From Schmidtea polychroa (lineage: Eukaryota): 64,000 nucleotides of DNA. The notes below the pieces were generated by a model that searched no databases, was not told where the DNA came from, and saw only the letters and a list, made by a program, of their open reading frames with translations. The position numbers and the translations under genes are program-made. The stretch's first letter is position 1; every line of letters starts with the position of its first letter. Of this stretch, positions 2,725 to 52,192 are shown piece after piece. The stretch covers positions 80,578,397 to 80,642,396 of the forward strand of contig CM097887.1 of the NCBI GenBank assembly GCA_044892525.1, written 5' to 3'.

Positions 2725-4510
2725 ATATTACAGTTATAAATTATAAACATTTATAATTGATCATTTGCGGTGATTGATTTATATTTTTTGATTTAAATTT
2801 CATATTTTATGTACATAATTGGACTAGGATAAGGTAATGTCAACTAATAATGATATTTCTACGTTTGTCTAAAAGTTTGATGAGACGGGAAAATTGAAAG
2901 AAACGCAAAATAAATTTTCAGAAAATTCTAACGTTTTTTTATTTGTTTTAATTGTTAAATTAATTTATTATTATAATTGATTTTAAATATACTAAATTTT
3001 GGGCCATCAATTTTATTATCACCTTTAAATGATCAATTTTATTAATTTAATTATTTTATTCCTGTCATTAACTACTTATTAGTATTTTTTTACTACCTTA
3101 ATATTAGTATATTTTTAGCATTGTTACCTTATCCCTAGTACAAACGACGAGCTTTTGCAGAAGCAGCTTGAAGGACAACAGGAACAAGCTCGAAGTTACG
3201 AAATTGTTCGGTTGACCGGGGACATTGGTCTGAGAGATTATTCTGAATAATATAATATAAATGACAAAAGGTGCGTGGAAAAGTATGTAAAGTACAAATT
3301 TGTCGAAAATGCAAAATATTAATTAATTAATTGAACTAAAAACCCGTTAAGAAAATAAACGATTTAGATTTTTGAGGGTAGTTAGTTATAAAACCTACCA
3401 TAGAAACCCTGAACAACTATTAATAAACTTATTTTTTAAATGACAGTCGACGGATTTGTTGGGTTAAGATGGTTAAGAACAATAATGTTAGACATTATTT
3501 AATCCACAATCATTAATTATAAAGTTAGTTCTGGTAAATAAAGAAAAGTAACATCAAAATTTGTTTTTTTTGTCTTTGGTAAGGAAGAAGAAACTGAAAG
3601 TAGAAAGTGGAAAAGAGCACTAATTAGAAAATTTATCAAAGGAAGATTGAAGGCGTATCGGTCATTGTTAAAGGAAGATTATTATCATAAACAGATATTC
3701 TGTTTAATATTTGTAATAATAATAATATACATTGGTAGTGTTGATTCTTATTTATTGAACACGAGGAGTTAGATTATAATTATAATTAACCTACGTACAA
3801 TTAGCCAGTAAAAGATCAACACATATACAGGACATATACAACACATAATAAACCTTGCTCAAGCTGTGACCTGAGAAAAATTATACAAACCGTGTAAAGC
3901 TGTTTAAAGTTGCCCGAATGTCGAGGCAAATGACGGAACTCTGCAGTTGAGGACAGAGTTCAATAACATTAAATGTGGTGTGATGTTGACTTTGTTTTGT
4001 CTTATTTGATGAATGAAAATTGTGTTGGGCCAAGCTCCGAAGGTGTTGGAAAATACGAACCTAGGAAGGGATAGAGTAAAATAAAATAAAAACATATAAA
4101 AATACGAGAAACATAGGAGGAAACAAATTAAATATCCAGCAAAGAAATTAGAAAAACTAAATAAAATAACAAAACCTCTAAAGGAAAAATAAGACAAGAG
4201 GGAAGGCACCTAATAAACGACAGTAAAAGAAAAAAATAAAATAGCAGAAAATTTAAGAAAAATGAACAAAAGTAAAAGAAGAAAAACAAAATAAAAAAAA
4301 AAAAAAAATCATCCATAAGGCTAATTAAAACAAAAAATGAAGTTACAATAAAATAGCAACAAAACCACAGGAAAAACAGATAAAATAATAAAAAATAGGA
4401 AAATAAATAAAATAATAATAAAAATAGGAAAAAGTCATTAAAATACACCTGATTACATTAAAAAACATAAAAATTATAATAAACAATAATATTACATGCA
4501 AGTCGCGTCC

Positions 4511-4590
4511 TGATTGGACGAAAAGTAATATATAAAGAGCGACAAAAATCTGTAGAGTATCATTCTAACCCGAAACTACAGGTAAAATTT
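4511..4590 (+). promoter_or_regulatory. LTR promoter: inverted CCAAT box, TATA box, then a splice donor in the leader
   Basis: TGATTGG (4511), TATATAAA (4529), CAG|GTAAAA (4581/4582) inside a short duplicated motif. The same arrangement (TGATTGG, TATATAAG, duplicated motif with CAG|GTAAG) occurs in the solo LTR at ~44650-44780. Confidence 0.6.
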
Positions 4591-6842
4591 TATCCTTTAT
4601 ATAATCATTCTAACCCGAAACTCTACAGGAAAACTAAGAACCACTCGCAAGCACAGATTATTGAACCATATTCATTCATCGGATATCATATACATTTAAC
4701 GGAGATCGAATTCAGTTCAGTCGAACGAGTCTATCTAAAGAAAACTTATATTATTTTGATCTAACACCTTCGGAGATTTTTGGTAAATTATGTTTTAGAT
4801 TTTAGCATGATGATTTAAATATTTATTATGAATTTAAAAAGTCGTTTATAATTCAATAAATTTCATATTTTAAACGAAGGTGTTGCTTTCTCTCTATGAT
4901 GCTGGCGACGGCGTCCTCTGGAATCCGGGTATGATGCAGTTGAGTTTTCCGAACGTCCTACGGAGGGGAAATTTACGAATACGAACTCGAGAAATTGAAG
5001 TGATAGAACCAGCCCAGGATCCATATGAATTTAGAAACTAAAGTGATTACTTAATGAATACGAGATTTATGCTAACCAGAGTCATCATGCCCGGATTTCA
5101 AATGTCGTGGTCGCCAGGTGAACATTTATTTAATTGATTTTCTCATAATTCCATTATTTCTATATTGATTCACTGAATAATTAAATTGTATTGTTGCACA
5201 TTTATTGAGAATGGAGTTGCGATGAGACGGGTCGAGTCGTCCTTCACACCGGTCCAAGAGCAGTGGGCAGAGATGCGTACTGCCTTGGGTGGGTTGTGAG
5301 GAGCGAGGAAACCATGTGAGATTTAACAAATCAAGTAATTGATTCTTTCATCGAGTGTAATCCACCCATCTTAGTCGTCGAAAACCATCCAATGCAGAAA
5401 CTTCTGAGTGACATAGTTTGAATCAACGATACCTTGGGAACTCCAGGAGATATACCATTAAAACTATCATCAGCATTGTGTCCAATCACGTAATTAAATA
5501 ATCTTTGATTTTGAGCCATATTCGTCTTGCATTGAGAAAAGTGACTGTTAGAATGTCTGCCGGAAGGAGTTATTAATTTCGAGTTTTTACGAGAGATTCT
5601 CTGTACTAAGCCCATTTCGTATCTTACAATCTGAAGGTGCTTTGGAAGCTACACCGCCGGGAGGTTAGCGAATAGATCCATCGTCTTGCTTATCGTCGAC
5701 TCCGAGGAGACTTAATGATCGACCAACGTCTAGCCGCTGTCATTGATAATAGCTCGATTTAGACATGAACGTAAACATCTCTGGATAGTAGATTAAGACA
5801 CTGACTGTGAGTCCGAAAGAAACGGTCGCCAGCAACATCGAGTGAGCGTAGTAGACCGCCGGGAAATCGATTGATAAGATATCTGAAGCCTCAATTCCGA
5901 GCGAACGAGTTGACAGTCTTTATCTCAAAACCAATTAGTAGAGAAAAATCTAAATATAAAATCAATCTTATCTAGTAGATTCGCAATTAACCCACACAAT
6001 TAGATTCATGTGATTTCTGTGACACTCTCTCAGACTCCAACCTATCTAGAAAATCAGCCAGCGATATCATGTCTAGTGTGCAGATAGTGGATAGATTTAC
6101 ATCATAATTACATAATGGTAGCAGGGGAGATGGCTAGGCTACATGTACAATCCGATAGCGAGATTACGTCACATTGAATGGTAGAATTGCTGCCCAGTCC
6201 AAGAACACACATCGATGATAAATTGTACAATGCATGCATATGAACCGACCTGACGACATCTGTTAGCATACATAAAAAGAAAAACTAACACACCACTACT
6301 CACAAACAAGCGTCGTTATGACGACATTTATGTCGCAAGATTTAAGGTGATCAAATAGCAAATTATGATAAGACTTAAATTGAATTTTGCGGTTCTTTTG
6401 TGAAGCCGATCACGACGTTTAAAACCCAATAGTCACCAGTCATACCGAACTAGGTTTTTGCGACACAACTCGCGCGTAATTTCAGGAATATAGTAGCGCG
6501 GGGAGTGGGGATGCTATTGCTAGGGAAGGATAATTATAATAAATTCGACTGTGATAAATTAATAAAAGCACATTAAATAAAAATGGCCAATTTCAGAAAG
6601 ATAAACATAAAGTCAAAGTTATGATAAATGTATTATTTCGAGTAATTCCGTTTTCTTTTTTCTCTATCAGTATGGATGCTTGCGGACAAATGAGTGTAAA
6701 TGTTGACCAGTGATAAGGGTAAGTGGGTCATTGTCGAGTAGGATGATTGGAAATAGGGTAAAAATTGTAGTCAAAATTTGGAAACGACACGCCAACGATT
6801 TTTTTTTTAACTCTACAATTAACAAAACGTCTTGATCTTCAG

Positions 6843-7604
6843 ATGCCTGTTTCAACCGCTACGAACAAGGATCTTCGTCCATGCTTCTCCTGCGCAGATA
6901 AAAACGCAGACATAGCACAACTCCACTTATATATCGGGGCACTGAAAAAGAGAATTGATCTCTATGAAGGCACGTGGTTCTCCCCGCCACAGATGAAGGA
7001 GGAGCGCAGTAAAATTCTTCGGTTGGAACATTGCCGGGACAGCCTCCTAGAGGAGAGTCGCTGTCAAAGACTGACGATCAAGGCGCAATCGGAAGCCCTC
7101 CACAAGGTCTACACGGAGGCAGAATTGGCCAAACGGGTACGAGAATTTCCCGTCTTGGAGGCCAGCAATGTTTTTCCCACTCACCACCAAAGTACTTCCA
7201 CCGCTACAACCAGTTGTCTGGGGCACGGCTCCTATCTGCCGCCTGTTCCAGCACCGGCCTTATATAGTTGTCAGCCGCCGGTAGGTGGTCCGTCCGACCC
7301 TATCTTGGCTCCAGTTTTAGTGACATCAGTTACAGCACCCGATGCGGACAACCATCAACCACAGCGTAAAAGAAAACGGCCGACCCGAGCCGCCAAAAAT
7401 CAAAGACGTCGAGATGCAATCGCGGCTCTCGAGGCGTCGTTATCTGTGGCCAAGTCTTCTCTGGAGAAGTTATCGTCACTACCTTCTACCCCCACCAAGG
7501 AGATATTCCGGGTGATCTCGCCCGAAGGGGTCCAGCTCGTGCGAGACCGTCGGTTACCGGTCGACATCGACGAGATGATCGCCGAAGGGGAAGTTTTCCC
7601 ATAA
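6843..7604 (+). CDS. LTR-encoded 253-aa protein (CxxC + coiled coil, Arg-rich basic segment, acidic C-terminus)
   Basis: Intact in both LTRs. The N-terminal ~95 aa are conserved at protein level in the diverged solo LTR (46953-47345). AG acceptor directly before the ATG. Confidence 0.75.
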   Translation: MPVSTATNKDLRPCFSCADKNADIAQLHLYIGALKKRIDLYEGTWFSPPQMKEERSKILRLEHCRDSLLEESRCQRLTIKAQSEALHKVYTEAELAKRVREFPVLEASNVFPTHHQSTSTATTSCLGHGSYLPPVPAPALYSCQPPVGGPSDPILAPVLVTSVTAPDADNHQPQRKRKRPTRAAKNQRRRDAIAALEASLSVAKSSLEKLSSLPSTPTKEIFRVISPEGVQLVRDRRLPVDIDEMIAEGEVFP

Positions 7605-8145
7605 TTGGACATGTCGTTGACCCATCTCTCATCCGACGCGATCAAGCTCAACAATCTTTATAAATGACTTAGATGATGCGTGTTTGTACTCTCCTACGTG
7701 TTGTGATTCGGAAATTTGTGTTCATATGTATCCTCAATTTCATTAATATAATCATAGTATTCGTTGTGTTGTCCCGTAAAAGTTATAGAGTAATGAGTGA
7801 TGTCTTGATGAATGAATTGGAATGACCACTGGAGAATGTGGGTCGTCCCCTTGGACCAGGGTCGTACCGAGAATGCATGACGAGTAGGGGTAAGACCTTC
7901 TTAGGCACCGAGGAACCTGAACTGAGAGTGGGTCCGTAGTAGTCCTAAGGCAGGGGCTCACCTGCGGATCAACTCCGACCCGTGTGAGCAGCACCAACGT
8001 GGGTAGATCATCACGGGCTCACATGAGGGAATATTTGTAAATCATGCGGGTTATGTGGGGGAAGGGCCCCGAGCTAAAGGAACATGATGCCAGCTGCACT
8101 ACGAATGTCCGTTTGACTCCTCCCATATACGCGCAACATGATTTT

Positions 8146-8163
8146 TGGGGGCTCAGCCGGGAT
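8146..8163 (+). promoter_or_regulatory. Primer-binding site complementary to the tRNA-Pro 3' end
   Basis: TGGGGGCTCAGCCGGGAT matches the canonical tRNA-Pro PBS (TGGGGGCTCGTCCGGGAT) at 16/18 and lies 7 nt after the LTR end. Confidence 0.85.
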
Positions 8164-8629
8164 ATATATTGATTTGTTTGATTGTCTATTTTTGTGTTAT
8201 GATGTGTTAGATTAACAATTTAATTAATTATGATAAAAATGGAATCGGGGCTGAAACGAATTATAGTGCAATGAAATGATACGAACTGTCTGAGTTTGAA
8301 AGAGAGTATGTATGAATAAAAACGAACCTAAATGAGTTTGAATGAAAATAAGGTTGAATGAATGTGAAAGAGTGCGGTGAGAAAAGAAAACGGGAATCAC
8401 TTATTTTGTTTAGTTTAATTTATTAAATTAAAAAGAGGGATGAAAGGAAGTAATGATAATAAAAGTAAATGATTAAAGTGAAAAATATGACGAGGGAATC
8501 CCAAGGATGGAATAAAATACAAAAGTTAGAAACATTAACAATAAAAGTCAAACGAAAATTAAATACCAACCTGATAATATCATTAATAATACCCGCAAAA
8601 CCAATAATAACAACACATTTTTTTTAGAT

Positions 8630-9109
8630 ATGTCGGAAGCTAGAAAACATCTACAACAGCTAAGCAGATTCATCGACATAGAAAACGATTCTCTAAAGAC
8701 GTTAAGAGAAAAACTGCAACAAATAGAGACCCTAGAACAACAACGCCACGATGCACCTCTGATATCAAAACAAAATTATTTAACCAATAAACTGGGAGCA
8801 ACAAACACCGATACCGACTTGTCTACCCATTACCAATGGATGCAGCAACGACTCGACGACCCCGCTCTGAACATCGAATATGTGAGAATACGCGAACAAG
8901 TAAAAACTTTGTCTCAAAGAATACGAACATCGATAGTAGAGAAAGCAGCGGTCTTAAGAACCTGTAACATTTGTAAGACGCGACCTGCCAAAATTCTAAT
9001 TCTACCGTGTGGACACCTTAGCCATTGTGACGAATGTGCCGTCAGTTTAACGCATTGTTCTTTATGTGTATGTGTGATAAAGGAGAAGCACACGATTTAC
9101 TTCAGTTAG
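8630..9109 (+). CDS. Coiled coil + C-terminal IAP/MDM2-type C3HC4 RING finger protein (putative E3 ligase)
   Basis: CNIC...ILILPCGHLSHCDECAVSLTHCSLC...IYFS at the extreme C-terminus. No BIR domain. TTTTTTTAG acceptor 2 nt before the ATG. Confidence 0.8.
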   Translation: MSEARKHLQQLSRFIDIENDSLKTLREKLQQIETLEQQRHDAPLISKQNYLTNKLGATNTDTDLSTHYQWMQQRLDDPALNIEYVRIREQVKTLSQRIRTSIVEKAAVLRTCNICKTRPAKILILPCGHLSHCDECAVSLTHCSLCVCVIKEKHTIYFS

Positions 9110-9689
9110 CACGCGATTAGCACTCGGTGAAAGAATTGATCTGATTGACGATTTGACTAAATCCTTTATGTTTAATTGATGGGTCAATAATTTTTTAGTA
9201 AATGTGTATATTGCATGTGGCTTAAGCCAAATAATGAATAGAATGTTTTGTGTGTTCATTTTATTGTGAATTCAGTAACTTTATGATAATTTTCACCATA
9301 GAGAGAGAGCATCAATAAACTTAATTTAAACAAATAATATAAAGTGGAACTAGTCCCAACATAGGGTTAAAGGGGGAATAAACCGAGCCACCTTCGGGAG
9401 GTACGTTATACAAATGCCGTTTGGGAAGGGACAACCGATCACCCCGAGTAAGAGATGTAAGGCGAGGTACCATCGCGAATATTGAAAAGTTTCTGCGGTA
9501 TGGCTGATCACCATACCAATGTAGAAATGGATCAATGCGATCGTTTTGCGTTTTGAGCAAGGGGGGAAAGGGGAAACCTTCCAAAGCGGTACAGATTAAG
9601 TCGACAAATAAAAGTAAAAATAGGAAGATGACAGTGTAGAATAAAGACAGAAAAGGAACGGAAGCATGCAGAGTTTAGAGACATTAAGG

Positions 9690-10060
9690 CCGAGCTGTTG
9701 AAAAGTCCAGCCGGTCAGGGAAAATTGAAACTGAGCTGTAAAAAGTCCAGCCAGTAGGGGATAATAAGATCGAGTTGCTGAATAGTCCAACCGGTCAGAA
9801 GAAGAAGATTGAGCTGTTGAATAGTGCCAGCCAGTCGTAAGATCGAGTTGTTGAATAGTCCAACCGGTCAGAAGAAGAAGATTGAGCTGTGAATAGTGCC
9901 AGCCAGTCGTAAGATCGAGTTGTTGAATAGTCCAACCGGTCAGAAGAAGAAGATTGAGCTGTGAATAGTGCCAGCCAGTCGTAAGATCGAGTTGTTGAAT
10001 AGTCCAACCGGTCAGGAGAAGAAGATTGAGCTGTTGAAAAGTGCCAGCCAGTCGTAAAGG
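9690..10060 (+). repeat. Tandem repeat, ~72-73 bp unit made of two related ~35 bp subunits, about 4-5 copies
   Basis: Repeated GAGCTGTTGAATAGTGCCAGCCAGTCGTAAGATC / GAGTTGTTGAATAGTCCAACCGGTCAGAAGAAGAAGATT. Confidence 0.9.
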
Positions 10061-10773
10061 CCTAAAGTAATAGTGAGATAGCATTTAAGCTACAAGTTGA
10101 TAACATTTAAATTACTAGTGAGATAGAATATTAAAGATAGCTAGAAGCAAATTGAGTTTGAAATATGGAATTTGAATTTAGAAAGGATCAAACGAGCTCG
10201 TAAAAGATGATAGTAAAATTCTTTTAGTAAAGAAGGAGAAACGGAAAAGGAAAATGAATTAGGAATAATAGAAACAAAGAATAAGTATGAATAGATGATG
10301 AATCAAAGAGGAAATAATTAATTAATTAAAAGGGATCCCAGGTAAGTAGACAAAAGTTCTACAGAATTTTTTTGGTTTAAACCGGTTAAACGAATTTTGT
10401 TTTGGTTCCAGAGCAGAACCGAGTAAAAGGAAATAGAGATGAAAGATTAAATGAATAAGCGGAACCGCGCAAAAGGATTAAGGAAAATATGGGGGGTAAT
10501 AAGCAGTAACTGACAACGACCTATCGATATTATAAATGCTAACTATAGATAATTTATACGACTATATAGATAATTGTTACTACCCCAAATAGATAATTAA
10601 AAATCGACGAAAACTATGGGTTGATGGGTAATTATATTCCGCGGAGAAGTGTATGAGGGGAAATGAAGAGAAGCATAACAGAGGCCCAAAAACAGTGTCT
10701 GCGCTTGAATGTGGTAAAAAGGAATGATTGATTCGTGTAAGCAAATGCAACACGATATCATTTTTTCATTGTA

Positions 10774-11072
10774 GATACCCATCCAACCAAGTCAATTCAG
10801 AACCAGCTCAAAAGGAAGCCAGAGAATATACAAACAACCCAGGAAAAGCAATTCAGAACCCGCATAAAGAAAAACAAGCCAATCCGAACACGGAGGACGA
10901 CAACGACATCTTTACCTACGACGGAATTATCGAAATATCTAGCATCGACGTAATAGCAGCAGTCAATCAAGGACTCAGATATCTCCTCCGGAAATCAGCC
11001 GAGAAATTACGCGGAATATTCCTCGAAGGAAACACTATCAGAACCGAACTTGACCAATTCAGCAGCCGCTAA
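10774..11072 (+). CDS. Possible small accessory exon/ORF upstream of gag, function unknown
   Basis: Strong acceptor TTTTTTCATTGTAG at ~10773 followed by ~100 open codons with the element's A-rich composition. No recognisable domain. Confidence 0.3.
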
Positions 11073-11437
11073 CCGTAGAAAAATCCACGTGAAAAGACAG
11101 AAAAGAGTAAGAAAGAATCACGGATAAACCCAACCTTAGATCTTCAAGTAAGCCAGGAGACGTATTATTTTCAGGAGACGAATTAGATCAACTCAAAAGA
11201 GGACGATCATTTAGGCAGCAGAGAGGAATATCACAAGGAGCAAAAAGACCCCACAAAACACCGATATACGATCAAGAAAACCCCACAGCCGGACATACGC
11301 CCAGTCGATCTAGAAGTAGAGAAAGCCTATCCGATATAACAAACAACCTAACCGGGTCAACAGAAGAATTATCCGTCCATAGTTTAGCTACATCGCTGGA
11401 AAATTTAAAAGGAATAATAGAGTGTCAAGAACCAATC

Positions 11438-13366
11438 ATGACGAATGTGGTAAAAACCGACGAATATAAAGAAAAATTTAGAGGCGAACCATTCAACGGG
11501 AATGCGAACAAGTTGGCAACGTTCATAACAAATTTTGAAGTCTATGTCGATGTGTGTAGATGGACATCAGAAGCAATTAGCAAACGGATGCCGTTGTTTT
11601 TATGTGATAGCGCATTAGAAGTGTATCTAGAAGCAAAAGAAAGAAATACGAAGTTAGACAATTGGGAAAGCATCAAAACATTTTTGAGAAAAACATTCGG
11701 AGCCAGCAAACCAATAAATCAAGCCCTAGGAGAATTAGCGAGTAGAAAACAAAGAGCAAATGAATCCATAACGTTGTATGCGAGTGAATTGCGAAGATTG
11801 GCAAAGAAGGCCATGAACGGAAACTTGCCGGAGGAAAATTTAATTGGTTATTTCATAGAAGGACTGCGCCGAGAAGAGGTAAGGGCCTCGGTGGGATGTC
11901 AAATGTGTAAAACACTAGAGGAAGCCATAGATTGGGCCACGAGATGCGAACTCCACCTCCCGGCACTAATGAATGTCATGCAAGAGGAAGGAAGAATCGC
12001 AACAGCAACGGTAAAAACTGAAAATGGAGAGAACAGCAATCATGAACCAAAAATGAATCAGTTTATACCCGGTGCGCATCAAATTTTCAAACCACCGCAA
12101 GGACGATCAAATGGGAATAACAGTGAACGCAACAACCCGAACAATGGGAATAATTTTAATAATCGACGAAACACGAACGATAACAAACAATGCCGAACAT
12201 GCGGTAAACCAGGACATTGGGATAGAGATTGTTACCGAAACGCAAATTGCAATAGGTGTGGACGACGGGGACACACGGAAAATATATGCCAATTGAGAGG
12301 ATGTTTTAATTGCGGTCAACCAGGTCATATCTCAAGAGACTGTCGAGAAAGGAGCCAACAACAACGACCACCACAGCGAAATAATAACTATGCACCAAAT
12401 CCGCAACGACAAAGTAATCCTAGTGAGGGAAAGCAAATGAATGTGATGCAAGAAATTTCACAAATGAAGCAGATGATGCAACAAATGATGAGACCGAGAC
12501 AAGAGCAAGTACCACAACAAACCCAGAATATACGCATGATGAGGAGCACCGAGAATCTTAACAATTATGAAGTGCAACAACATGCACAAGAATGGCAAAG
12601 ACTACAAGCTGAAGAAGAGAGGATAAAAAGAGAGCGAATTCAGCAGCGACAAGAACAACCATTACGAATAAATATGATGAGAATGGTAAGGGAGATAAAA
12701 GAGCAATATTGTTACAATTACGGTAAAAATCCAAGAGTTGTACCTATGAGCGAACCAGAGAAACCGAAAGAAACAATTCCAGCAGCAAAAAAGGAAAATT
12801 CAACAACATCGCTAAAAGGAAATCAGAGAATTCAGAAAATATTTTGGAAAAAGATAAAAGATAAAATCGAAAGAGAAAATGAGAAAACAAAAACAGAAGC
12901 AGAAGCGGAAAATAACGAAAAGGAAAAACAGATTAATCATCTAAATCATGATATGATACGAGGATTAGACTCAGAGGAGCTAACGATACTCGAGAACAAA
13001 AAATTAAAGAAAGTACCAAGAATGAGAAATTTACGAATTAATATGATAAGGACAACAAAGAAGGTGTTGTCAACAGATGACGATGAGGATTATGTGAGTA
13101 GCCTTGGTGGAGAAATGTTACAGTTAAATGAAAATATCGACCAACTAAGAGAAAAGATCGGAGCAGATGAGGATGAAAGTGAAAGCGACGTAACAAGCGA
13201 AAGCGAAGACGAGAATATCGAAATGAAATTGAGAAAAGAAAGAGAAGAAGCAATAAAACAAGTAAAGGAAATACTTCCAGTGGTGGTAAGAAACCAGGAA
13301 TTCATTGACATCATACCATACAGACGCTTCACACAAAGGATAATGAAACTAGAAAGAAACGAATAA
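11438..13366 (+). CDS. gag: Gag: capsid-like domain, three CCHC zinc knuckles, Q-rich and acidic/coiled-coil tail
   Basis: FNGN...FITNFE, RKQRANESITLYASELRRLA...FIEGLR, and knuckles CRTCGKPGHWDRDC, CNRCGRRGHTENIC, CFNCGQPGHISRDC. Confidence 0.92.
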   Translation: MTNVVKTDEYKEKFRGEPFNGNANKLATFITNFEVYVDVCRWTSEAISKRMPLFLCDSALEVYLEAKERNTKLDNWESIKTFLRKTFGASKPINQALGELASRKQRANESITLYASELRRLAKKAMNGNLPEENLIGYFIEGLRREEVRASVGCQMCKTLEEAIDWATRCELHLPALMNVMQEEGRIATATVKTENGENSNHEPKMNQFIPGAHQIFKPPQGRSNGNNSERNNPNNGNNFNNRRNTNDNKQCRTCGKPGHWDRDCYRNANCNRCGRRGHTENICQLRGCFNCGQPGHISRDCRERSQQQRPPQRNNNYAPNPQRQSNPSEGKQMNVMQEISQMKQMMQQMMRPRQEQVPQQTQNIRMMRSTENLNNYEVQQHAQEWQRLQAEEERIKRERIQQRQEQPLRINMMRMVREIKEQYCYNYGKNPRVVPMSEPEKPKETIPAAKKENSTTSLKGNQRIQKIFWKKIKDKIERENEKTKTEAEAENNEKEKQINHLNHDMIRGLDSEELTILENKKLKKVPRMRNLRINMIRTTKKVLSTDDDEDYVSSLGGEMLQLNENIDQLREKIGADEDESESDVTSESEDENIEMKLRKEREEAIKQVKEILPVVVRNQEFIDIIPYRRFTQRIMKLERNE

Positions 13367-25946: not shown

Positions 25947-27335
25947 ATGGATAAGCGACAACGAGAAGAATTCAAAGAAATTGTTGAACAAGTCAGAAAG
26001 TCCACCACAATTCGAATACACAACCATGTAACGTGTGGGATATGCAAGAGCTTATTAAGAGAACCTCACCAAACCAGATGTGGATGCAGAATGTGCAGAG
26101 AATGTGTAGAGGAGATAATAAAGAAGGGACCACAATGGTGCCCAGTATGCAAAGAAACAATGATAACAAGTTTGGGAGATACAAACGAAGATAAAGCAGC
26201 TGTAAAAGATATGTTGAATGCAAACTTAGGATGCAAAAACACCCCATGTAATTGGCGAGGAGTGATATGGGAAGTGAGGCAACATATGGAGCAATGTGAA
26301 TATAAAATCAGTCAATGCAAACGTTGCCAAGAAGAGATTAAAGTCAATGAAGAAGCAGAACATCAAAGTCGATGCGAAGAAAGACTGGAGAAATGTGAGT
26401 ATTGCGGAGAAACCGACACCTGGAAAAAACTAATCAGTCAACATCACAACATACAAGAGGAGAAAGTGTGCGCCGAATTCAGAGGAGAATGCCCCAACAA
26501 ATGCGATAAACCCGGAGTAATAAAACTCGCTCAACATCTGAAAGAATGTGAAAGGAAAAAGATAAGGTGTGTGTTAGGAAAATGGGGATGTCAGAAACAA
26601 TTACACCGAGGGGAATTACCCCAACATCTAGCAGAAAACGTATCAACACACGCGGAAATATGGTCAACGGTATTACAAGAAAACGAAAGGAAAACCGAAA
26701 ACTTAGAAAGAGAAATAGTCTCGCTAAAAGCGTTGGTAAAAGAACTATTGGAAGAAAAGGAAGCATTCGAAGAGGCAAGAACAAGCACAAAGATACAAAC
26801 AGATCTAGTAGAAACTAGCAACATTATGGTGAAAGAACTACATCAAAAAATAAGCGAATTAAACCTCAACGAATTAATACCAACGGCTCCATACATATGG
26901 AAGATAACGGGAGTAAAAGAGAAGATGTAGAGAGCGAGAAATGGAAAGGATACAACATTACTAAGTCCAGCATTCTACTCATGGAAAAACGGGTATAAAA
27001 TGAAAATGAAAGCATATCCCAATGGGGATGGGAGTGCATACGGAACGCATTTCTCAGTATTCTTCTTGATATGCAAAGGGCTATACGACGAGTTAATAGA
27101 ATGGCCATTCAAAGCAAAAATAGACCTCGCAATGATGAACTATCAAAGTATACATGAACAGAGTTTCCATACAGCGGGAAACCTCGTATGTTACCAAAGG
27201 CCCTTGGAAGAAGAAGGATCAGCAACCGGAGCACCGAATTTCATCCTACAGCGGAAAGTAGAAGACATGACGAGAAACGACACTATATACATAAAAATAG
27301 CGGTGAGGCGAGACGGGAAGAGTAGGACTGAGTAG
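25947..27335 (+). CDS. Intronless TRAF homologue (RING, TRAF zinc fingers, coiled coil, MATH/TRAF-C) with one in-frame TAG at 26928-26930
   Basis: RING CGIC...PHQTRCGCRMCREC...CPVC and TRAF-type zinc fingers. MATH domain PYIWKI...KM*RARNG...SPAFYSWKNGYKMKMKAYPNGDGSAYGTHFSVFF...YDELIEWPFKAKI stays in frame across the stop. Confidence 0.88.
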
Positions 27336-29503: not shown

Positions 29504-30121
29504 ATGTGGTTCGGAGCAGCCCTGGTGACAATAATGATGATAGCGATAAACGGAGTACCCATATGGCAGCCAATCCCAACACTCTGGGAGAATCCCGAGA
29601 AACAGCAAAACCCGTTAACCAAACTGAAAAGCGAAAGAAAGCTCTCCAACAACATCCCGAAACAATGCTGGAACAAAGCCGTCTGGCAAAAACTTCAAAT
29701 GCAACTCCGCCTACAAACCCAAAAAATCGAACAGCTCGAAATTCTCTTACAAGAACAAACCACCCAACAATCCTTGAAGGAAATCATCGTGAAGAAGGAA
29801 GTAAAAGAAAGTCAAGTCCTACTCTATGCTACCATCAGTGAAACCCTTATCATCTGCGCACTAGTCATCTGGAAAGCGTATGATATTCATCGAACATGGA
29901 GAAGAAACCAGTCACTATCCGAGAAACACGAAAGAAAGAACCCACGACCGAAAAATAAACATAAACGAGCAGTACATTTTCAACAACCAAGCCCACCCGA
30001 CCAAATGCAACAAAATCTATCCCCTGACCAAATGCCTGTTACAATCCAGCCCCACATTCAAAAACTTATTACCCGCCGTTACCCAGTGCTTAGCAGAACT
30101 ACTGCTATATATCATTCATAG
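29504..30121 (+). CDS. Small type-I membrane protein: signal peptide, coiled-coil ectodomain, TM helix, basic/Pro-Gln tail
   Basis: MWFGAALVTIMMIAING (signal), LQMQLRLQTQKIEQLEILLQEQ (coiled coil), VLLYATISETLIICALVIW (TM). Confidence 0.6.
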   Translation: MWFGAALVTIMMIAINGVPIWQPIPTLWENPEKQQNPLTKLKSERKLSNNIPKQCWNKAVWQKLQMQLRLQTQKIEQLEILLQEQTTQQSLKEIIVKKEVKESQVLLYATISETLIICALVIWKAYDIHRTWRRNQSLSEKHERKNPRPKNKHKRAVHFQQPSPPDQMQQNLSPDQMPVTIQPHIQKLITRRYPVLSRTTAIYHS

Positions 30122-37851: not shown

Positions 37852-40800
37852 TGTTGGGCCAAGCTCCGAAGGTGTTGGAAAAAACGAACCTAGGAAGGGA
37901 TAGAGTAAAATAAAATAAAAACATATAAAAATACGAGAAACATAGGAGGAAACAAATTAAATATCCAGCAAAGAAATTAGAAAAACTAAATAAAATAACA
38001 AAACCTCTAAAGGAAAAATAAGACAAGAGGGAAGGCACCTAATAAACGACAGTAAAAGAAAAAAATAAAATAGCAGAAAATTTAAGAAAAATGAACAAAA
38101 GTAAAAGAAGAAAAACAAAATAAAAATAAAAAAAAAATCATCCATAAGGCTAATTAAAACAAAAAATGAAGTTACAATAAAATAGCAACAAAACCACAGG
38201 AAAAACAGATAAAATAATAAAAAATAGGAAAATAAATAAAATAATAATAAAAATAGGAAAAAGTCATTAAAATACACCTGATTACATTAAAAAACATAAA
38301 AATTATAATAAACAATAATATTACATGCAAGTCGCGTCCTGATTGGACGAAAAGTAATATATAAAGAGCGACAAAAATCTGTAGAGTATCATTCTAACCC
38401 GAAACTCTACAGGTAAAATTTTATCCTTTATATAATCATTCTAACCCGAAACTCTACAGGAAAACTAAGAACCACTCGCAAGCACAGATTATTGAACCAT
38501 ATTCATTCATCGGATATCATATACATTTAACGGAGATCGAATTCAGTTCAGTCGAACGAGTCTATCTAAAGAAAACTTATATTATTTTGATCTAACACCT
38601 TCGGAGATTTTTGGTAAATTATGTTTTAGATTTTAGCATGATGATTTAAATATTTATTATGAATTTAAAAAGTCGTTTATAATTCAATAAATTTCATATT
38701 TTAAACGAAGGTGTTGCTTTCTCTCTATGATGCTGGCGACGGCGTCCTCTGGAATCCGGGTATGATGCAGTTGAGTTTTCCGAACGTCCTACGGAGGGGA
38801 AATTTACGAATACGAACTCGAGAAATTGAAGTGATAGAACCAGCCCAGGATCCATATGAATTTAGAAACTAAAGTGATTACTTAATGAATACGAGATTTA
38901 TGCTAACCAGAGTCATCATGCCCGGATTTCAAATGTCGTGGTCGCCAGGTGAACATTTATTTAATTGATTTTCTCATAATTCCATTATTTCTATATTGAT
39001 TCACTGAATAATTAAATTGTATTGTTGCACATTTATTGAGAATGGAGTTGCGATGAGACGGGTCGAGTCGTCCTTCACACCGGTCCAAGAGCAGTGGGCA
39101 GAGATGCGTACTGCCTTGGGTGGGTTGTGAGGAGCGAGGAAACCATGTGAGATTTAACAAATCAAGTAATTGATTCTTTCATCGAGTGTAATCCACCCAT
39201 CTTAGTCGTCGAAAACCATCCAATGCAGAAACTTCTGAGTGACATAGTTTGAATCAACGATACCTTGGGAACTCCAGGAGATATACCATTAAAACTATCA
39301 TCAGCATTGTGTCCAATCACGTAATTAAATAATCTTTGATTTTGAGCCATATTCGTCTTGCATTGAGAAAAGTGACTGTTAGAATGTCTGCCGAAGGAGT
39401 TATTAATTTCGAGTTTTTACGAGAGATTCTCTGTACTAAGCCCATTTCGTATCTTACAATCTGAAGGTGCTTTGGAAGCTACACCGCCGGGAGGTTAGCG
39501 AATAGATCCATCGTCTTGCTTATCGTCGACTCCGAGGAGACTTAATGATCGACCAACGTCTAGCCGCTGTCATTGATAATAGCTCGATTTAGACATGAAC
39601 GTAAACATCTCTGGATAGTAGATTAAGACACTGACTGTGAGTCCGAAAGAAACGGTCGCCAGCAACATCGAGTGAGCGTAGTAGACCGCCGGGAAATCGA
39701 TTGATAAGATATCTGAAGCCTCAATTCTGAGCGAACGAGTTGACAGTCTTTATCTCAAAACCAATTAGTAGAGAAAAATCTAAATATAAAATCAATCTTA
39801 TCTAGTAGATTCGCAATTAACCCACACAATTAGATTCATGTGATTTCTGTGACACTCTCTCAGACTCCAACCTATCTAGAAAATCAGCCAGCGATATCAT
39901 GTCTAGTGTGCAGATAGTGGATAGATTTACATCATAATTACATAATGGTAGCAGGGGAGATGGCTAGGCTACATGTACAATCCGATAGCGAGATTACGTC
40001 ACATTGAATGGTAGAATTGCTGCCCAGTCCAAGAACACACATCGATGATAAATTGTACAATGCATGCATATGAACCGACCTGACGACATCTGTTAGCATA
40101 CATAAAAAGAAAAACTAACACACCACTACTCACAAACAAGCGTCGTTATGACGACATTTATGTCGCAAGATTTAAGGTGATCAAATAGCAAATTATGATA
40201 AGACTTAAATTGAATTTTGCGGTTCTTTTGTGAAGCCGATCACGACGTTTAAAACCCAATAGTCACCAGTCATACCGAACTAGGTTTTTGCGACACAACT
40301 CGCGCGTAATTTCAGGAATATAGTAGCGCGGGGAGTGGGGATGCTATTGCTAGGGAAGGATAATTATAATAAATTCGACTGTGATAAATTAATAAAAGCA
40401 CATTAAATAAAAATGGCCAATTTCAGAAAGATAAACATAAAGTCAAAGTTATGATAAATGTATTATTTCGAGTAATTCCGTTTTCTTTTTTCTCTATCAG
40501 TATGGATGCTTGCGGACAAATGAGTGTAAATGTTGACCAGTGATAAGGGTAAGTGGGTCATTGTCGAGTAGGATGATTGGAAATAGGGTAAAAATTGTAG
40601 TCAAAATTTGGAAACGACACGCCAACGATTTTTTTTTTAACTCTACAATTAACAAAACGTCTTGATCTTTAGATGCCTGTTTCAACCGCTACGAACAAGG
40701 ATCTTCGTCCATGCTTCTCCTGCGCAGATAAAAACGCAGACATAGCACAACTCCACTTATATATCGGGGCACTGAAAAAGAGAATTGATCTCTATGAAGG

Positions 40801-41968
40801 CACGTGGTTCTCCCCGCCACAGATGAAGGAGGAGCGCAGTAAAATTCTTCGGTTGGAACATTGCCGGGACAGCCTCCTAGAGGAGAGTCGCTGTCAAAGA
40901 CTGACGATCAAGGCGCAGTCGGAAGCCCTCCACAAGGTCTACACGGAGGCAGAATTGGCCAAACGGGTACGAGAATTTCCCGTCTTGGAGGCCAGCAATG
41001 TTTTTCCCACTCACCACCAAAGTACTTCCACCGCTACAACCAGTTGTCTGGGGCACGGCTCCTATCTGCCGCCTGTTCCAGCACCGGCCTTATATAGTTG
41101 TCAGCCGCCGGTAGGTGGTCCGTCCGACCCTATCTTGGCTCCAGTTTTAGTGACATCAGTTACAGCACCCGATGCGGACAACCATCAACCACAGCGTAAA
41201 AGAAAACGGCCGACCCGAGCCGCCAAAAATCAAAGACGTCGAGATGCAATCGCGGCTCTCGAGGCGTCGTTATCTGTGGCCAAGTCTTCTCTGGAGAAGT
41301 TATCGTCACTACCTTCTACCCCCACCAAGGAGATATTCCGGGTGATCTCGCCCGAAGGGGTCCAGCTCGTGCGAGACCGTCGGTTACCGGTCGACATCGA
41401 CGAGATGATCGCCGAAGGGGAAGTTTTCCCATAATTGGACATGTCGTTGACCCATCTCTCATCCGACGCGATCAAGCTCAACAATCTTTATAAATGACTT
41501 AGATGATGCGTGTTTGTACTCTCCTACGTGTTGTGATTCGGAAATTTGTGTTCATATGTATCCTCAATTTCATTAATATAATCATAGTATTCGTTGTGTT
41601 GTCCCGTAAAAGTTATAGAGTAATGAGTGATGTCTTGATGAATGAATTGGAATGACCACTGGAGAATGTGGGTCGTCCCCTTGGACCAGGGTCGTACCGA
41701 GAATGCATGACGAGTAGGGGTAAGACCTTCTTAGGCACCGAGGAACCTGAACTGAGAGTGGGTCCGTAGTAGTCCTAAGGCAGGGGCTCACCTGCGGATC
41801 AACTCCGACCCGTGTGAGCAGCACCAACGTGGGTAGATCATCACGGGCTCACATGAGGGAATATTTGTAAATCATGCGGGTTATGTGGGGGAAGGGCCCC
41901 GAGCTAAAGGAACATGATGCCAGCTGCACTACGAATGTCCGTTTGACTCCTCCCATATACGCCCAACA
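37852..41968 (+). repeat. 3' LTR (4117 bp)
   Basis: TGTTGGGC...GCCCAACA, followed by TSD ATTG. Confidence 0.95.
40673..41434 (+). CDS. LTR-encoded 253-aa protein, 3' LTR copy
   Basis: Translation identical to 6843-7604. Confidence 0.75.
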   Translation: MPVSTATNKDLRPCFSCADKNADIAQLHLYIGALKKRIDLYEGTWFSPPQMKEERSKILRLEHCRDSLLEESRCQRLTIKAQSEALHKVYTEAELAKRVREFPVLEASNVFPTHHQSTSTATTSCLGHGSYLPPVPAPALYSCQPPVGGPSDPILAPVLVTSVTAPDADNHQPQRKRKRPTRAAKNQRRRDAIAALEASLSVAKSSLEKLSSLPSTPTKEIFRVISPEGVQLVRDRRLPVDIDEMIAEGEVFP

Positions 41969-42344: not shown

Positions 42345-43920
42345 TGTTGGGCTGAAACCGAGAACTGAGAGTTTGTTTTAATCGATCGAAAACACCTAAC
42401 ACAAAAACCGCAAAGTTGAAAAAATTTATGATCAAGGTTTAATGTAAAATAAATAGAATAAATTACATAACACATTAGGAATCAATAAACCCCGTATAAT
42501 AGAAAAGAGATAAATAGATTTAACAAAAAAATTGAACACTTAAAAATTTCGATAGAAAAATAATAAAATGTAAAATATAATTATTTGAAAATTATTTAAA
42601 CGATATAAAAATTAAATCGTCAAAATAATAAAATTAGTTAACATTATGTAAATTGTAAAGTTTATAGAATTAAATGGTTAGAATTATGTAACTTATTAAA
42701 TTTAAAGAATAAAAGTGTTTAAATTAATAAAAATTAAAATAACTCAAATTATTTAAATTATAAAATTTATAAAATTAAATTATTAAAATTAATAAAAAAT
42801 TAAATAATTAATTAAATTAATGAAATTAAAAATAAATAAATAATTGCACACATTCATGCATGTATGCAAAATTAATTCAAAATTTCTCGCACTCTAATTG
42901 GATAGAGTGGCAGAGAATGCATGAATGCGCATTCAAAATCAGTATAAATACTGATTACAAATTCATTTGAAAAAACTTTTTTTCAACACCACAACATAAT
43001 TTGCAGACAGTAAACATATGCTCTCAGTTTTCGATTTTATGCCATCGTGGATTTGGTAATTTATTTTTGTTGTAATTTTTATGAAATGATTTAATCTAAT
43101 AAATTTTACATTCAATCAATTTTTAGTTAAATTTTCTTTTGTTGTTCGTTTTGATTGTATAATTTTCATGCAGGTTTTAAGTTTTAGATAATAATTTTAT
43201 TAGGTTCAGTTTTTACATTCATTAATTTTGATTAGTAGTTACGGTGGGACTGAGATCCAGTAGGCCACAGCTTAAGGGACACTAGTTGTTCCTATTGCGA
43301 GTAGGTCCACTGGCTTTTCAGATTCACATGGATTGATCGGGCCATAACGAGGAGGCTTCTCCCCTGGTCCGTCTCCGTAAGTATTTTCTAGTCGGAGATA
43401 GGTTTGACTTAGAAATACAGGCAGATCCCTGCGCAAAATTTTTTGAAGAATAATTTAAATATTATGGGAAGTGTGGATTAACTTGGAAATAAGGGCCAAT
43501 CCCTGCTCAAATTTTTTGAAGAATAATTTGGATATTATAGGAAGTATAGAACAATAATTATTAGATGGAAAATAAGGGCGGATCCCTGCGCAAAATTTAT
43601 AAGAGAACAATTGGAAATACCCGTAATTGAGGACCACAAATGATCTAAAAACAGCATACATAGTGAATAATGACGTAAGACCTTCTATCGGCAGTCTTGA
43701 ACTCGAAAACAAAATAAAATGGGGAGTAGTTTTAGTAATAGAGCTCACCTGCTCATTGTTTTTTCACCTTTGTGTACAGTACCAACCTGGTCGTCGCCAT
43801 GGGTACACAAATGGTTTAAATTGCAATAGTCATGGAGGTGCTTAGGAAAGAGTCGAACGATTATGATTACCCCTAACGTATTTTAAAATGTAAAAATGAC
43901 ACACCCCTAAGTAACCAACA
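42345..43920 (+). mobile_element. Solo LTR (1576 bp), related family
   Basis: TGTTGGG...ACCAACA with 4-bp TSD TTAT on both sides. TATA-like CAGTATAAAT at ~42941. Shares the 3' motif blocks with the other LTRs. Confidence 0.8.
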
Positions 43921-44323: not shown

Positions 44324-47300
44324 TGTTGGGCTGAGTCGAAGGGTATCCAAGAAATTAGGTTAAACATAATTAAATTAAAATAAAAAGAAAACAAACAAAT
44401 TTAAGAATAAAATAGAATAGGATATAAGAAAAATAAAAAATTAGAAAATAGGAATTAAAACAAAAAAATATAAAAATAAGGAAAATTAAAATAGGACAAT
44501 AGAATGACAAAAAATAACGTAAAATGTAGTAAATAATAAAGAAATTAAAGAAAATAAATAAAAACACAATAAAAATAAAGAAAATAGGAAAAAATAACTC
44601 AAAAACAAGAAAAATAAATTAAAGCAATAAAATTAAGCGGCACTCAATTCTGATTGGTCCGCACACATCAAAAATTAATATATAAGGAAACACAAAAATT
44701 ACAAACTTACAGTTAAACAACCAACTTTACAGGTAAGACAAATTTTAACAGTGACAGTTAAACAACCAACTTTACAGGTAAACAGCAGCAACGTACGAGA
44801 ATCAATCTAGAAACCAGGAGATATTATCAAACAGTTAACAATCGACGTAAATTTCGAGTAACCATTTATTCAATTCGATACCTTCCGACTCAGCCTAAAA
44901 ATCTATACAAATTACTTGGTAAGGAATTTTTCGATTTATACTTTATCTAAGTAATAGTAGTCATGTAATTTTATGAAATAATTATAAATTTAAACTGAAA
45001 ACAGTTGTCCTTTCGTTTGATTCCTAATGATAAATTTGCTAATTAGAGGATTCAGTTATTTAATAAATGAATTATTATGAACTTTTTATGATTGATTTTT
45101 ATGCATTATTATTTAATTCCGAGAAACGTGGCGTTGAGAAACTCCATGTCATGGTGTGAGGTGCCTTCGGGAGCTCAGCCGGTGGACATGGCGTTTTTCA
45201 ATCACGCAGCTGATTCGGGCCGTAATGTGGGGGCTTCCTCACGGGTCCGTCGCTGAAGATGTGACTAAAATACGTGGACGATACTGTAGAGAGATGGTAA
45301 CTATCAAGCAATGAGGAGTGTAGTCATGTGAGGAAAATCTTGTTCGAGAGTTCGCATAGTGACTGAGGGCGTCATACTATCGTCTTTAGCAAATTGAAAT
45401 TGTTACTATCATCTAAAGATCTATATAGGACTCTCCTTTAAATCAGTCTGGGCACCATTTGTCGCATATTCTCTACGTTCGTGATTCCTCTCGAAATTAT
45501 TCCTGAAACCGTCAACCTACCAACTTTCATAACTGCTATTTTTATCACGTGCAATCAATTTTGATACGTTCCTCTAAAACCTACTTGTGGTGGATTGTGG
45601 AAAACAAATAGTTCTCAAAAATAATAAACCATGAAATAATAACGAATCTGATCAGGAAAATATATTTAAAAAAAAAACACTTAAATAAGTCATTTCTTTA
45701 TATATCGAATGCCAAACGTCTGTGTCAACTGATGCAAAGGTATGGGGGAGATAACTGATCCGACAGACCCTCCATGGGAGTAAAATCCGAGTCTTAGAGG
45801 TGTCACAGAGGATGATAGAATACCCGCATTTCGTCGAATTGTATTTCCAGCGATAGCTAATAAATTTCCAACCCGATATAGATAGTGGGCATGTTGATAA
45901 TGATAAAATCCATGAGGGGAGTAGAAATTATAGCTTGGATAGTTGACCAATTTGTCTACGAAATGAATGCCATCCAGGAACAACGATACGCAAAATCTTC
46001 CTATGCAAAATTTCCATGAGAGATAGAAATTCAACACAGCGTAATATAACATCTGATGATTCATGCAAGCTGCCGAATAGGATAAGAGTCTCACGAAGTG
46101 AGTACCCGCACACATGTGTAAATGCACACATTGCAAGTTCTAATAACCACAGACCACATGCTAGTGCTCACCAATAATAACACAGATATCCCTAGCCGTA
46201 ATTCTACGAGTCTATCTTCCAGGTGACCCATTTATTAAGATCGCATAGTCATCTAACCCGATAGTAGATAATTCACCACGAACGGCTAACGTGAGAAAAG
46301 TCCACCGGGTGTGTCAGATGAAAATTTCGGCTATTTACCGAAAGCACTAGACATGAGTGATGATAACATGAGTCACCAACAACTCAATAATTTATGTTAA
46401 AATAGTAAATAAATGTGAGATTTGAAAACAAAATTATAATAAAATATAGACAATATAATCGAAAGCCTAAATAAAATACAAATAAATTCAACTCAATTAA
46501 TTCAAGTCTATTAATGGAACTGCTAAAATTTAATATTTTCAATTAATAATAAATTACAACCAACTTATCTAATTATCTATAAAATCATTATAATGATTAG
46601 CTCAATTTTCACTTAGTGATTGTATAGTTCGGGTTAAATTTTCAATGCTATTTGTCTCTTCAAGGAAATTTCCGTCATCAATAATTCCTCTCAAACATGC
46701 AATTTTCATTTTCTTTAACAATGATATACAACCTTCGTTAAGTAAAGCCTTATGTTGCCAGTTGGTTTTCTAGTGAATAAACACCTAGAGCCCGCATAGG
46801 TCGATGGCATAGGAAATCCCTCTTGATAAATAATCCGTTTTTCTTTTCCGGTAAAAATGTCTAATACTGATTAACGAATAGTGGCGGAAGATGATGATTT
46901 TCTAAACTTGATTTATCCCATTTAGTGTTATTACTATTCTTAGCTAGCAGACATGTTACCCAATGCAAAAACCGTCCTCAGGCCCTGCTTTTCTTGTTCC
47001 GACAAGAACGCAATAATCAAGGACCTACAGACCCAGATCGGACGGTACAAAAAGAAAATAGACGAGTTAGAGGGGACATGGTTTAGTCCCGCCCAGATGA
47101 AAGAGACCCAAAAGAAATTACACCGAAGTGAACATTGCCGGGACGCTCTGATCTCCGAGAGTCGTGCCCAAAGAAGTTTGATCAAGGAGCAGTCCGAGGC
47201 GCTGCATAAAGTGTACATCCAGGCTACGGCAACTAGGAAGATAGTGAAAGTCCCCATCGGTGAAGCTGACAATCTCTTTCCGACCCACCATGATACTTCG

Positions 47301-48251
47301 GCCAAATCATCGCCCCCTTCGAAAAAACCTGCCGGCCGTGCGTAGAAACGCAACTCTGGCCAGAGCAACTATAGGTAGGTTTTGTGGGAAATAGTCGGGT
47401 ACTGCCTAACGTCGCCTCTACATCGGTGGTAGCCCCAAACAATTCATCGACCAACAAACCAAAGCGTCGGCAGCTATCGAGGGCCGAACGCAAAAGGAAA
47501 CAGCGTGAGCGAATAGCCGCAAAGCAGTCCAAGCAACTGCCGGACCTCGGGAGTAATGTAAATAACGTCCCTGCTGTAATTGACCTAACAACAGGAACAC
47601 CAGGGCGGATCATATCTGCCGCTGGGGTGACGTGGGAGGAAAACGCCTCCGAATTCTTCGATTTGGACGAGTTACTCGCCGACTCCGAGTGGGAAAATTG
47701 AGGATTTTCCCGTGAAGTGACCTCATCCTTCGGAGAGTCCTGAATCAACTAACATCATTTCCTGTCTTTATGTTCTCTTATTCTGATTCTGATGTATGAG
47801 TTACGACGCGCCTGTATTACAATGTTTGAAATAAACAATTTTTGTCTGTATACGGGTTTTGTTTTTCGTTCATAAGGAATTTACATTGAGTGGTAAATGG
47901 CATTGAGTGTTTTGAGATTCGAGGAGTATGGTCCAGTTGCAATCCAAATCAAGAGTATGGCGACAGGGTGACAGAATGAGTAGACGTAAGTCCTTCTATC
48001 GGCAGTCAGGGGTAGGAATTCGAGGCCTCAGTAAGGAGTAGTCCGAAGATGGTGGCTCACCTGCTTACTGGCGTCTCGCCGGCATAGCACAGTTCCAACG
48101 TGAAGTAATTCACGGGTGCTATGTTGGAGTATAAATTATGCACGGGCCCTGCTCGGGGTGACACAGTAATGACAGATATAATTGTAACGGGCATTCATCC
48201 CCTAGGCTAGAAAGTTGAACTAAGGGTGGTCAACCGAGTAGTGCCCCAACA
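44324..48251 (+). mobile_element. Solo LTR (3928 bp) of a second giant-LTR family
   Basis: TGTTGGG...CCCCAACA with 4-bp TSD CTTG on both sides. Same layout as the main LTR: A-rich start, CCAAT/TATA, donor, internal ORF, 3' motif. Confidence 0.9.
46953..47701 (+). pseudogene. Homologue of the LTR-encoded protein, split into two out-of-frame ORFs (46953-47345 and 47384-47701)
   Basis: LRPCFSCSDKNA...EGTWFSPAQMKE...EHCRDAL..ESR.QR..IK.QSEALHKVY matches the main LTR ORF. The second part carries the Arg-rich segment and an acidic end. Confidence 0.7.
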
Positions 48252-50333: not shown

Positions 50334-50405
50334 TAAATTTAAAACTTTAGTTATTTTCAATGATTTAAAAACACCAAAACACTAATAAAGATGTATTAAA
50401 TAAAT

Positions 50406-52076: not shown

Positions 52077-52192
52077 TTCTACTGAATATTTAAAAAATCA
52101 AGTATATATATATATATGTTATATTATAGAGTAATTAAATCAATTTATTCTTTACGATATAAACAAAATTAATTTTTAAATAAATATTAAAA

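Follow-up and report, generated by a model that had tools for sequence, protein, structure and literature searches.

The open reading frame at 6843-7604 of the window (the whole 64,000-nt stretch of Schmidtea polychroa DNA that was analyzed) is a real, selected, orphan protein gene lying wholly inside a retrotransposon LTR; its function, discussed below, is one that we infer. The gene and the elements around it are as follows.

6843..7604 (+): LTR gene, 253 aa, orphan family; intact, with a copy at 40673-41434
4023..8138 (+): 5' LTR, subfamily A1, 4116 bp; TG...CA ends; ATTG at both flanks
37852..41968 (+): 3' LTR with the second intact gene copy (40673-41434); pairs with the 5' LTR
8146..8163 (+): primer-binding-site candidate, directly 3' of the 5' LTR here and also in one family B element; presumably tRNA-Pro-like
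42345..43920 (+): solo LTR, family C, 1.6 kb; target-site duplication (TSD) TTAT; U5 element kept, LTR gene absent
44324..48251 (+): solo LTR, family B; TSD CTTG; gene frameshifted into 46953-47345 and 47375-47701

The carrier is a 37.9-kb Burro-like giant Ty3/gypsy LTR element at 4023-41968, a length that includes a nested non-LTR element. Its two 4.1-kb LTRs are 99.8% identical and the element has an ATTG target-site duplication. The 5' and 3' LTRs differ at nine positions, only one of which falls within the ORF, where it is silent; 6843-7604 and 40673-41434 encode identical 253-aa proteins, so the initial annotation was right that the frame is intact in both LTRs. Between the LTRs are a gag, a polyprotein region, an in-frame viral fusion protein, protease (PR), RT, RNase H and integrase, and ankyrin, RING, and TRAF/MATH genes. 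A Pfam search placed the fusion protein (PF24664, E 4e-72) at 1227-1566, followed by RVP, RVT_1, RNase H, and rve, together with a weak match to a Bcl-2-like motif (E 0.026); ankyrin, MATH, and RING modules were detected among the 18 element proteins scanned. Burro/GYPSM1 elements are planarian giant Ty3/gypsy elements of more than 30 kb, with a CCHC-knuckle gag, a Bcl-2-like motif, a mononegavirus-type fusion protein in frame before PR-RT-RH-IN, ankyrin, MATH/TRAF, and RING (PMC6431247). By size and module architecture, as read from the sequence, the window element matches this published description: it exceeds 30 kb, here with multikilobase LTRs, and has an env-like fusion protein between the Bcl-2-like motif and the protease. 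It differs in that TRAF/MATH lies downstream of pol and in that BIR, a further module of these elements, had no match in the 18 proteins scanned against Pfam; moreover, the element section of PMC6431247 names accessory ORFs, none of them inside the LTR.

The LTRs are 33.8 kb apart in the window, compared with ∼26.4 kb in sister copies, which total ∼30.5 kb. A non-LTR retrotransposon (RVT_1, zf-RVT) is apparently nested in the element at 29865-36386 (+). In-frame stops at 13364-13366, 22172-22174, and 26928-26930 interrupt the polyprotein at two places and the TRAF gene at one, despite the 99.8% LTR identity. A RING-finger accessory gene at 8630-9109 (+), just past the primer-binding site (PBS), has its own acceptor-like AG and is 44% identical to the family B version, and five tandem repeats of 72 to 80 nt occupy the leader region at 9685-10057, which is the deepest-covered bin in run X2.

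The initial annotation had also noted that the N-terminal region recurs in the solo LTR at 46953, and this was borne out (57% identity over 112 aa, E 1e-47). Its further statement that both versions carry a basic and an acidic segment stands as far as the presence of those segments goes (29% over 99 aa, E 2e-7), but in the solo copy they lie in a different frame from the N terminus: the N-terminal frame, 46953-47345, runs for 130 aa before a stop, and 47375-47701 holds the basic segment and tail. Because the frameshift splits the gene, the solo-LTR copy in the window is unable to make the whole protein. The suggestion that solo LTRs could express the gene thus fails for this family B copy, but most of its family relatives have one open frame of ∼249 aa.

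By its sequence, the LTR gene recurs in at least seven LTR lineages of the genome; full frames are found in A1, A2, B, D, and G, and broken copies only in E and F. An 18-nt pattern from the predicted U5 gave 2,592 genome matches, and its reversed control gave none. In a sample of 20 loci picked from the first 100 listed of these matches, with rarer motif variants favored, the gene or its remains lie upstream of the U5 motif in 16, and the gene is intact in 5. Family C has no profile match to the LTR gene, either at 42345-43920 or in 12 family loci. Full family C elements contain a gag-like ORF with no pol match in both of the two examined, so the family looks nonautonomous, and its elements are likely nonautonomous riders. 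They are ∼15 kb long (loci L140 to L143), with 1.6-kb LTRs and one 877-aa gag-like ORF, and they are very common among the U5-motif matches.

Evidence of strong purifying selection came from 80 loci, 70 of which have a frame of at least 245 aa (65 distinct sequences), compared by pooled pairwise dN/dS. Over residues 11 to 115, dN/dS is 0.080 within A1, 0.033 within A2, and 0.098 within B; between A1 and A2 it is 0.025 (dS ∼1.7, pS 0.67, pN 0.04), well outside what chance would give. The linker, basic, and tail regions give 0.08 to 0.41 within lineages. The excess of synonymous changes between families, which the initial annotation had named as the check, was thus found and favors a gene; the A-versus-B comparison suffers from saturated synonymous sites and an unreliable linker alignment. 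Changes shared between copies were then set against private ones, with 12 loci taken as second LTRs of pairs dropped and a neutral expectation of ∼2.5 nonsynonymous (N) to 1 synonymous (S). A2 N termini have 5 N:55 S shared and 16 N:7 S private changes (Fisher P = 6e-8). The contrast is moderate for the whole gene in A1 (9:35 shared versus 29:32 private, P = 0.007) and weak for the N terminus in B (17:42 versus 18:20, P = 0.08); frameshifted copies inflate the family B counts beyond the N terminus. Most shared changes are synonymous, and private ones are near neutral, which indicates that selection acts during element replication. This pattern points to a gene that serves the replicating element and not the host, with no sign of host domestication.

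The best 150 of 6,947 genome candidates scored by protein included 144 stop-free frames. As a control on this score-chosen sample, a genome search was made with noncoding LTR DNA; it returned the same 38 A1 LTR ends as the protein search (matched by eye), of which 35 are stop-free. That the frame is not a functional gene, and is kept open by recent copying or by an overlapping DNA or RNA signal, is very improbable. No transcript junction in the contig runs and no homologue were found, as that reading would have it, but the protein has hardly changed although synonymous positions have nearly saturated (pS 0.67, pN 0.04), and start, stop, and motifs are kept across lineages; the dN/dS pattern refutes it.

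The signals predicted to govern expression of the gene are all within the LTR.

4512..4536 (+): CCAAT-like box (GATTGG) and TATA box, predicted promoter; predicted start near 4562
4562..4581 (+): predicted ∼20-nt leader exon with donor AG/GTAAAA at its end; donor conserved across subfamilies
4582..4628 (+): mini-intron candidate, 47 nt; the leader exon is repeated at its end, closing with CAG, which could serve the leader's donor as an alternative acceptor
6840..6842 (+): putative splice acceptor abutting the ATG; AG conserved across loci
7745..7750 (+): predicted poly(A) signal, AATATA; AATAAA in family B
7890..8030 (+): conserved element, predicted U5; GTAAG(A/T)CCTTCT (U1-site-like) and two hairpins

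With promoter-like signals upstream and poly(A)-like signals downstream, the gene does sit between the predicted LTR promoter and the LTR end, as had been claimed, and the sequence contains both splice signals proposed for it, a donor at 4581/4582 and an AG at 6840-6842. The GATTGG box, TATA box, leader, and donor lie ∼0.5 kb into the LTR, and the box-TATA-donor spacing is the same in 15 of 20 A2 loci, in the window's solo LTR, and in 5 further B-type loci. A duplicate of the leader end is found at +46 to +51 in 14 of the 15 A2 loci with a detected donor. In family B (44695-44781) a second GT follows the repeated leader, so that removal of the mini-intron would regenerate a donor there; no GT follows the repeat in family A. 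At the other end of the predicted intron, a YAG stands 0 to 1 nt before the ATG in 50/50 A1/A2 loci and 2 to 9 nt before it in 30/30 B loci, and the acceptor is kept although the upstream DNA differs between subfamilies. Because 43 ATGs intervene between 4562 and 6842, scanning from an unspliced RNA is unlikely. A YAG also lies no more than 6 nt from the first or second ATG in 6/6 accessory ORFs, against a background of 160/824 ATGs; for two of these ORFs, the first or second ATG was taken as fitted. A second donor at ∼6718 in A1 was considered and rejected, being conserved in neither A2 nor B. A hexamer resembling a poly(A) signal is present 120 to 210 nt before the U5 motif in 70/70 intact loci, compared with 147/400 control windows. 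If the signals are used as predicted, U3 would be ∼0.54 kb, R ∼3.2 kb, and U5 ∼0.37 kb, and the LTR gene is probably a terminal exon within the ∼3.2-kb R region.

The joint from donor to acceptor (4581 to 6843) was absent from the 15 joints listed of 39, and from 14 further joints, in contig runs whose type was guessed; these are built from 31-letter words, longer than the ∼20-nt leader, and in them start, end, strand, and level are invisible. Contigs cross the acceptor unspliced in X7 and X8, two runs of one sample whose RNA status is likewise presumed, which fits intron-retaining RNA, DNA, or loss of the 20-nt exon in assembly. Two pattern searches of the genome for leader and ORF joined directly, as in a retrotransposed spliced LTR, gave four matches and no junction.

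Three parts of the encoded protein are conserved.

6873..7187 (+): N-terminal domain spanning residues 11-115, with a CxxC, helices 15-43 and 48-100 separated by a WFSP turn, and NxFPxHH; an alpha-hairpin coiled coil is predicted
7365..7415 (+): NLS-like KRKR and basic helix (S/T)RAE(K/R)xxxR, 69/69 proteins; helix 182-211 predicted
7560..7586 (+): acidic-hydrophobic tail motif Φ-D-Φ-[DE]-x-Φ-Φ, activation-domain-like, 67/69 proteins

Two models agree on helices at 15-43, 48-100, 182-211, and 242-247, with disorder between them (pTM 0.25 and 0.33); pLDDT is mostly 85 to 97 on the helices of the N-terminal domain. The conserved motifs, in order, are PCFSCxDKN, EGT(W/Y)FSPxQMKE, EHCRD...EESR, QSEALH, NxFPxHH, KR...(S/T)RAE(K/R), and the terminal Φ-D-Φ-[DE]-x-Φ-Φ. 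All 69 distinct intact proteins have the CxxC and the basic motif, the basic region having a mean net charge of +8.3. The tail motif falls within the last 30 residues in 67 of them, from five lineages, with a tail net charge of ∼-5; the pattern was derived from these same, related sequences, and its shuffle control is not independent. The linker diverges while the acidic tail motif is kept. A scan with generally known NES patterns, applied after the basic motif, matched 15/15 A1, 5/20 A2, 3/27 B, and 0/1 G proteins, against shuffled expectations of 9.2, 10.4, 11.6, and 0.6, respectively; the A1 match is the NES-like IAALEASLSV, present in 15/15 copies. Family D was left out of this comparison, its count (3 of 6) having begun from a wrong upstream match. 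By these patterns no leucine-rich export signal is conserved across lineages, and an NES-like pattern is a group trait in A1 only. The basic region of a bZIP protein has N-x7-R spacing; a true bZIP was rejected as a candidate, as the basic helix here lacks that spacing and family B has no zipper after it.

No homologue was found outside the genome with a single query, a 30-sequence alignment, or a shorter-length search. The sole match in a library of 1.84 billion sequences was a 927-aa protein with seven repeats, aligned in the linker, which we judged spurious. Only scores below 0.9 came from the ESM Atlas, including hepatitis delta antigen (0.76) and bZIP clusters (0.82 to 0.83), and these are generic coiled-coil leads; Pfam gave only subthreshold coiled-coil families for the LTR protein. 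A search of BFVD and PDB returned no fold match at E 0.001, the query models being of low pTM and the weak matches generic alpha-hairpins. The Tat, Rev, Rex, Tax, and Tas families had no Pfam match for 30 members at E 0.5 and none among PDB sequences. The label Tat/Rev/Tax-like, which the initial annotation had attached to the frame, must therefore be dropped as a family assignment, there being no sequence or fold relation in the Pfam, PDB, or BFVD searches; comparisons with Tat, Rev, and Tax are analogies.

The U5 element bears on what the protein might do. Its hairpins covary, with both sides changed in 5 of 10 pairs and 95.6% of cells paired, and slid controls are far lower; the shuffle test of this covariation is inflated by sequence relatedness. 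Positions 7840-8040 alone fold no better than shuffles (z -1.2), so support for the structure comes from the covariation, and Rfam gave no match across 4000-11500. The near-invariant GCTCACCTG at 7955-7966 forms the loop of a small hairpin; its minus strand reads as a consensus donor, and we take it to resemble the U1 5' end.

Our best explanation, which we hold tentatively and at somewhat less than even chances, is that the product of the LTR gene acts in the nucleus to activate expression of its own element, in the style of Tas or EBNA2. The layout, from a predicted oligomerizing N terminus through a disordered linker and NLS-like basic helix to an acidic hydrophobic tail, is that of an acidic activator. 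The LTR promoter would start transcription near 4562, splicing would join the 20-nt leader to the AG that precedes the ATG, and the RNA would end near 7765, giving a spliced mRNA of ∼0.95 kb that would need nothing outside one LTR. The CxxC/alpha-hairpin domain would oligomerize, the KRKR and basic helix would take the protein to the nucleus and onto a nucleic acid target in its own LTR family, and the acidic ΦxxΦΦ tail would recruit host coactivators, closing a positive feedback loop. Between an A1 and a B element the LTR protein is ∼38% identical, whereas Pol is 89 to 94% and Gag/Pol 85 to 94% identical; the protein thus tracks the LTR, as a cognate activator would. The activator reading is weakened because the donor has a nearer acceptor 47 nt away and no transcript joint or fused-leader copy was found, and because no homologue or fold match gives a function. 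ΦxxΦΦ motifs also serve nontranscription partners.

The main rival reading is a Rev/Rex/CERV-like RNA handler: bound to the U5 hairpin through its basic helix, the protein would help unspliced RNA leave the nucleus or promote read-through at the poly(A) site of the 5' LTR. We consider this possible but unlikely. The predicted layout, with an intron and a poly(A) signal inside R, needs such a switch, because a full-length RNA must keep the intron and pass the poly(A) site; the covarying U5 hairpin lies beyond the predicted poly(A) site and so is predicted in full-length RNA only, and the arginine-rich motif is in 69/69 proteins. The hairpin, however, is near the PBS and also resembles a packaging or priming signal, and family C keeps it without the gene, though it may borrow the protein. 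The NES-like IAALEASLSV of A1 (15/15) would suit an exporter, but the pattern is below shuffled expectation elsewhere (5/20 A2, 3/27 B, 0/1 G), and the conserved tail is acidic. There is a gypsy precedent: in the available part of PMC10309623, CERV of Cer1, made from a spliced mRNA, is needed for genomic RNA export and has a helix-hairpin-helix, KRKK, and a Cys loop. The LTR protein resembles CERV (Cer1, Caenorhabditis elegans) and HIV Rev, as far as that text goes, in being a gypsy-encoded regulator from a spliced RNA (role and splicing being predicted here) with a helical hairpin, a basic NLS, and conserved cysteines; CERV differs in its 517 aa, its exons shared with gag, and its globular M and G domains, whereas the LTR protein has 253 aa, is LTR encoded, has no predicted globular domain, and lacks a conserved NES. 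Retroviral poly(A) choice can, moreover, be solved by U1 and RNA structure alone, as the accessible portion of PMC3694450 describes for foamy viruses.

Readings in which the protein acts on the host or the particle appear weaker still. Counterdefense or host modulation, directed at piRNA/H3K9me silencing or at a host pathway of signaling or survival, the tail serving to dock a host protein, strikes us as improbable. It is in keeping with the host-like character of the other accessory genes (RING, TRAF/MATH, ankyrin, and a weak Bcl-2), with the faster divergence of the gene than of pol, and, from sources seen in part, with PIWI control of BURRO1 (PMC8532177) and a Burro1 IAP-like protein reported at second hand to protect stem cells (PMC13465017). 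But the LTR protein has no host-like domain, every region measured is under purifying selection within lineages, and free riders should often lose a shared trans-acting antagonist, yet many lineages keep the gene. A structural or scaffold protein of the particle or preintegration complex, that is, a coiled-coil oligomer with a nucleic acid-binding arm, is more doubtful again: the predicted coiled coils are long and other accessory ORFs are also coiled-coil-like, but divergence follows the LTR and not Gag/Pol (∼38% versus 85 to 94%), and a regulator is the better fit for the acidic tail and the NLS-like motif, both conserved.

The activator reading has its nearest analogue in foamy virus Tas. 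The consulted part of PMC517496 describes Tas as a nuclear activator that binds DNA of the LTR and the internal promoter, carries an acidic domain at its C terminus, and shows little homology from one species to another. On that partial account, Tas/Bel1 and the LTR protein are both small, have an acidic segment at the C terminus, and diverge fast between lineages; a nuclear location is predicted for the latter. They differ in that Tas has no detectable homology to the LTR protein and in that the LTR gene lies inside both LTRs. Foamy viruses have an internal promoter, and their Tas gene lies outside the LTR. Coding sequence within or overlapping an LTR is known from MMTV sag, HIV nef, and HTLV-1 HBZ, where it lies in U3 or antisense and is expressed from outside or against the LTR's own promoter. 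In contrast, the LTR gene is predicted in R, downstream of the start, and that one LTR also supplies its predicted promoter and poly(A) signal. Plant LTR retrotransposons have additional ORFs that are conserved and have been proposed to be regulatory, and in the available text these occupy internal sequence, for the most part the stretch separating pol from the 3' LTR (PMC7264820); they are like the present gene in being conserved extra ORFs without known function and unlike it in location, which is the LTR here.

The Burro element family, and regulators made from spliced RNAs in complex retroviruses and Cer1, are already known. Our literature search found in print neither the LTR protein family nor any retrotransposon LTR that holds a complete sense-strand gene 3' of its start site, although prior mention of either is possible in the primary Burro papers; a word search of PMC13524379 found no Burro, and the part of PMC11410931 seen mentions it once. 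Regulators encoded by the element itself are a hallmark of complex retroviruses; few have been documented in gypsy elements, and Cer1 CERV is the sole worked case found. Because a solo LTR would retain promoter, gene, and poly(A) signal, a regulator gene in the LTR survives the recombination by which elements are ordinarily disarmed. A broader and more speculative extension of the activator reading, which we think distinctly less probable than an even chance, is a self-contained feedback LTR: with a transactivator terminal exon in a 3-kb R, intact LTRs, solo ones included, would switch on cognate elements in trans, promoter and activator would turn over together while pol stays near constant, and the protein would form a new family of animal transcription regulators. 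Burro elements are, in the sources partly seen, abundant, PIWI controlled, and reported to affect planarian stem cells, and the 253-aa gene is a candidate for their switching on.

Two observations concern neighboring or related DNA. At G000:C1:145063309-145163760, four equal-score copies of the LTR gene are spaced at 33.2 kb, as a whole-element tandem array or an assembly artifact. At 49043-64000 of the window, long terminal inverted repeats flank ORFs with integrase-chromo and endonuclease VII matches, a unit that we take to be Polinton/Maverick-like.
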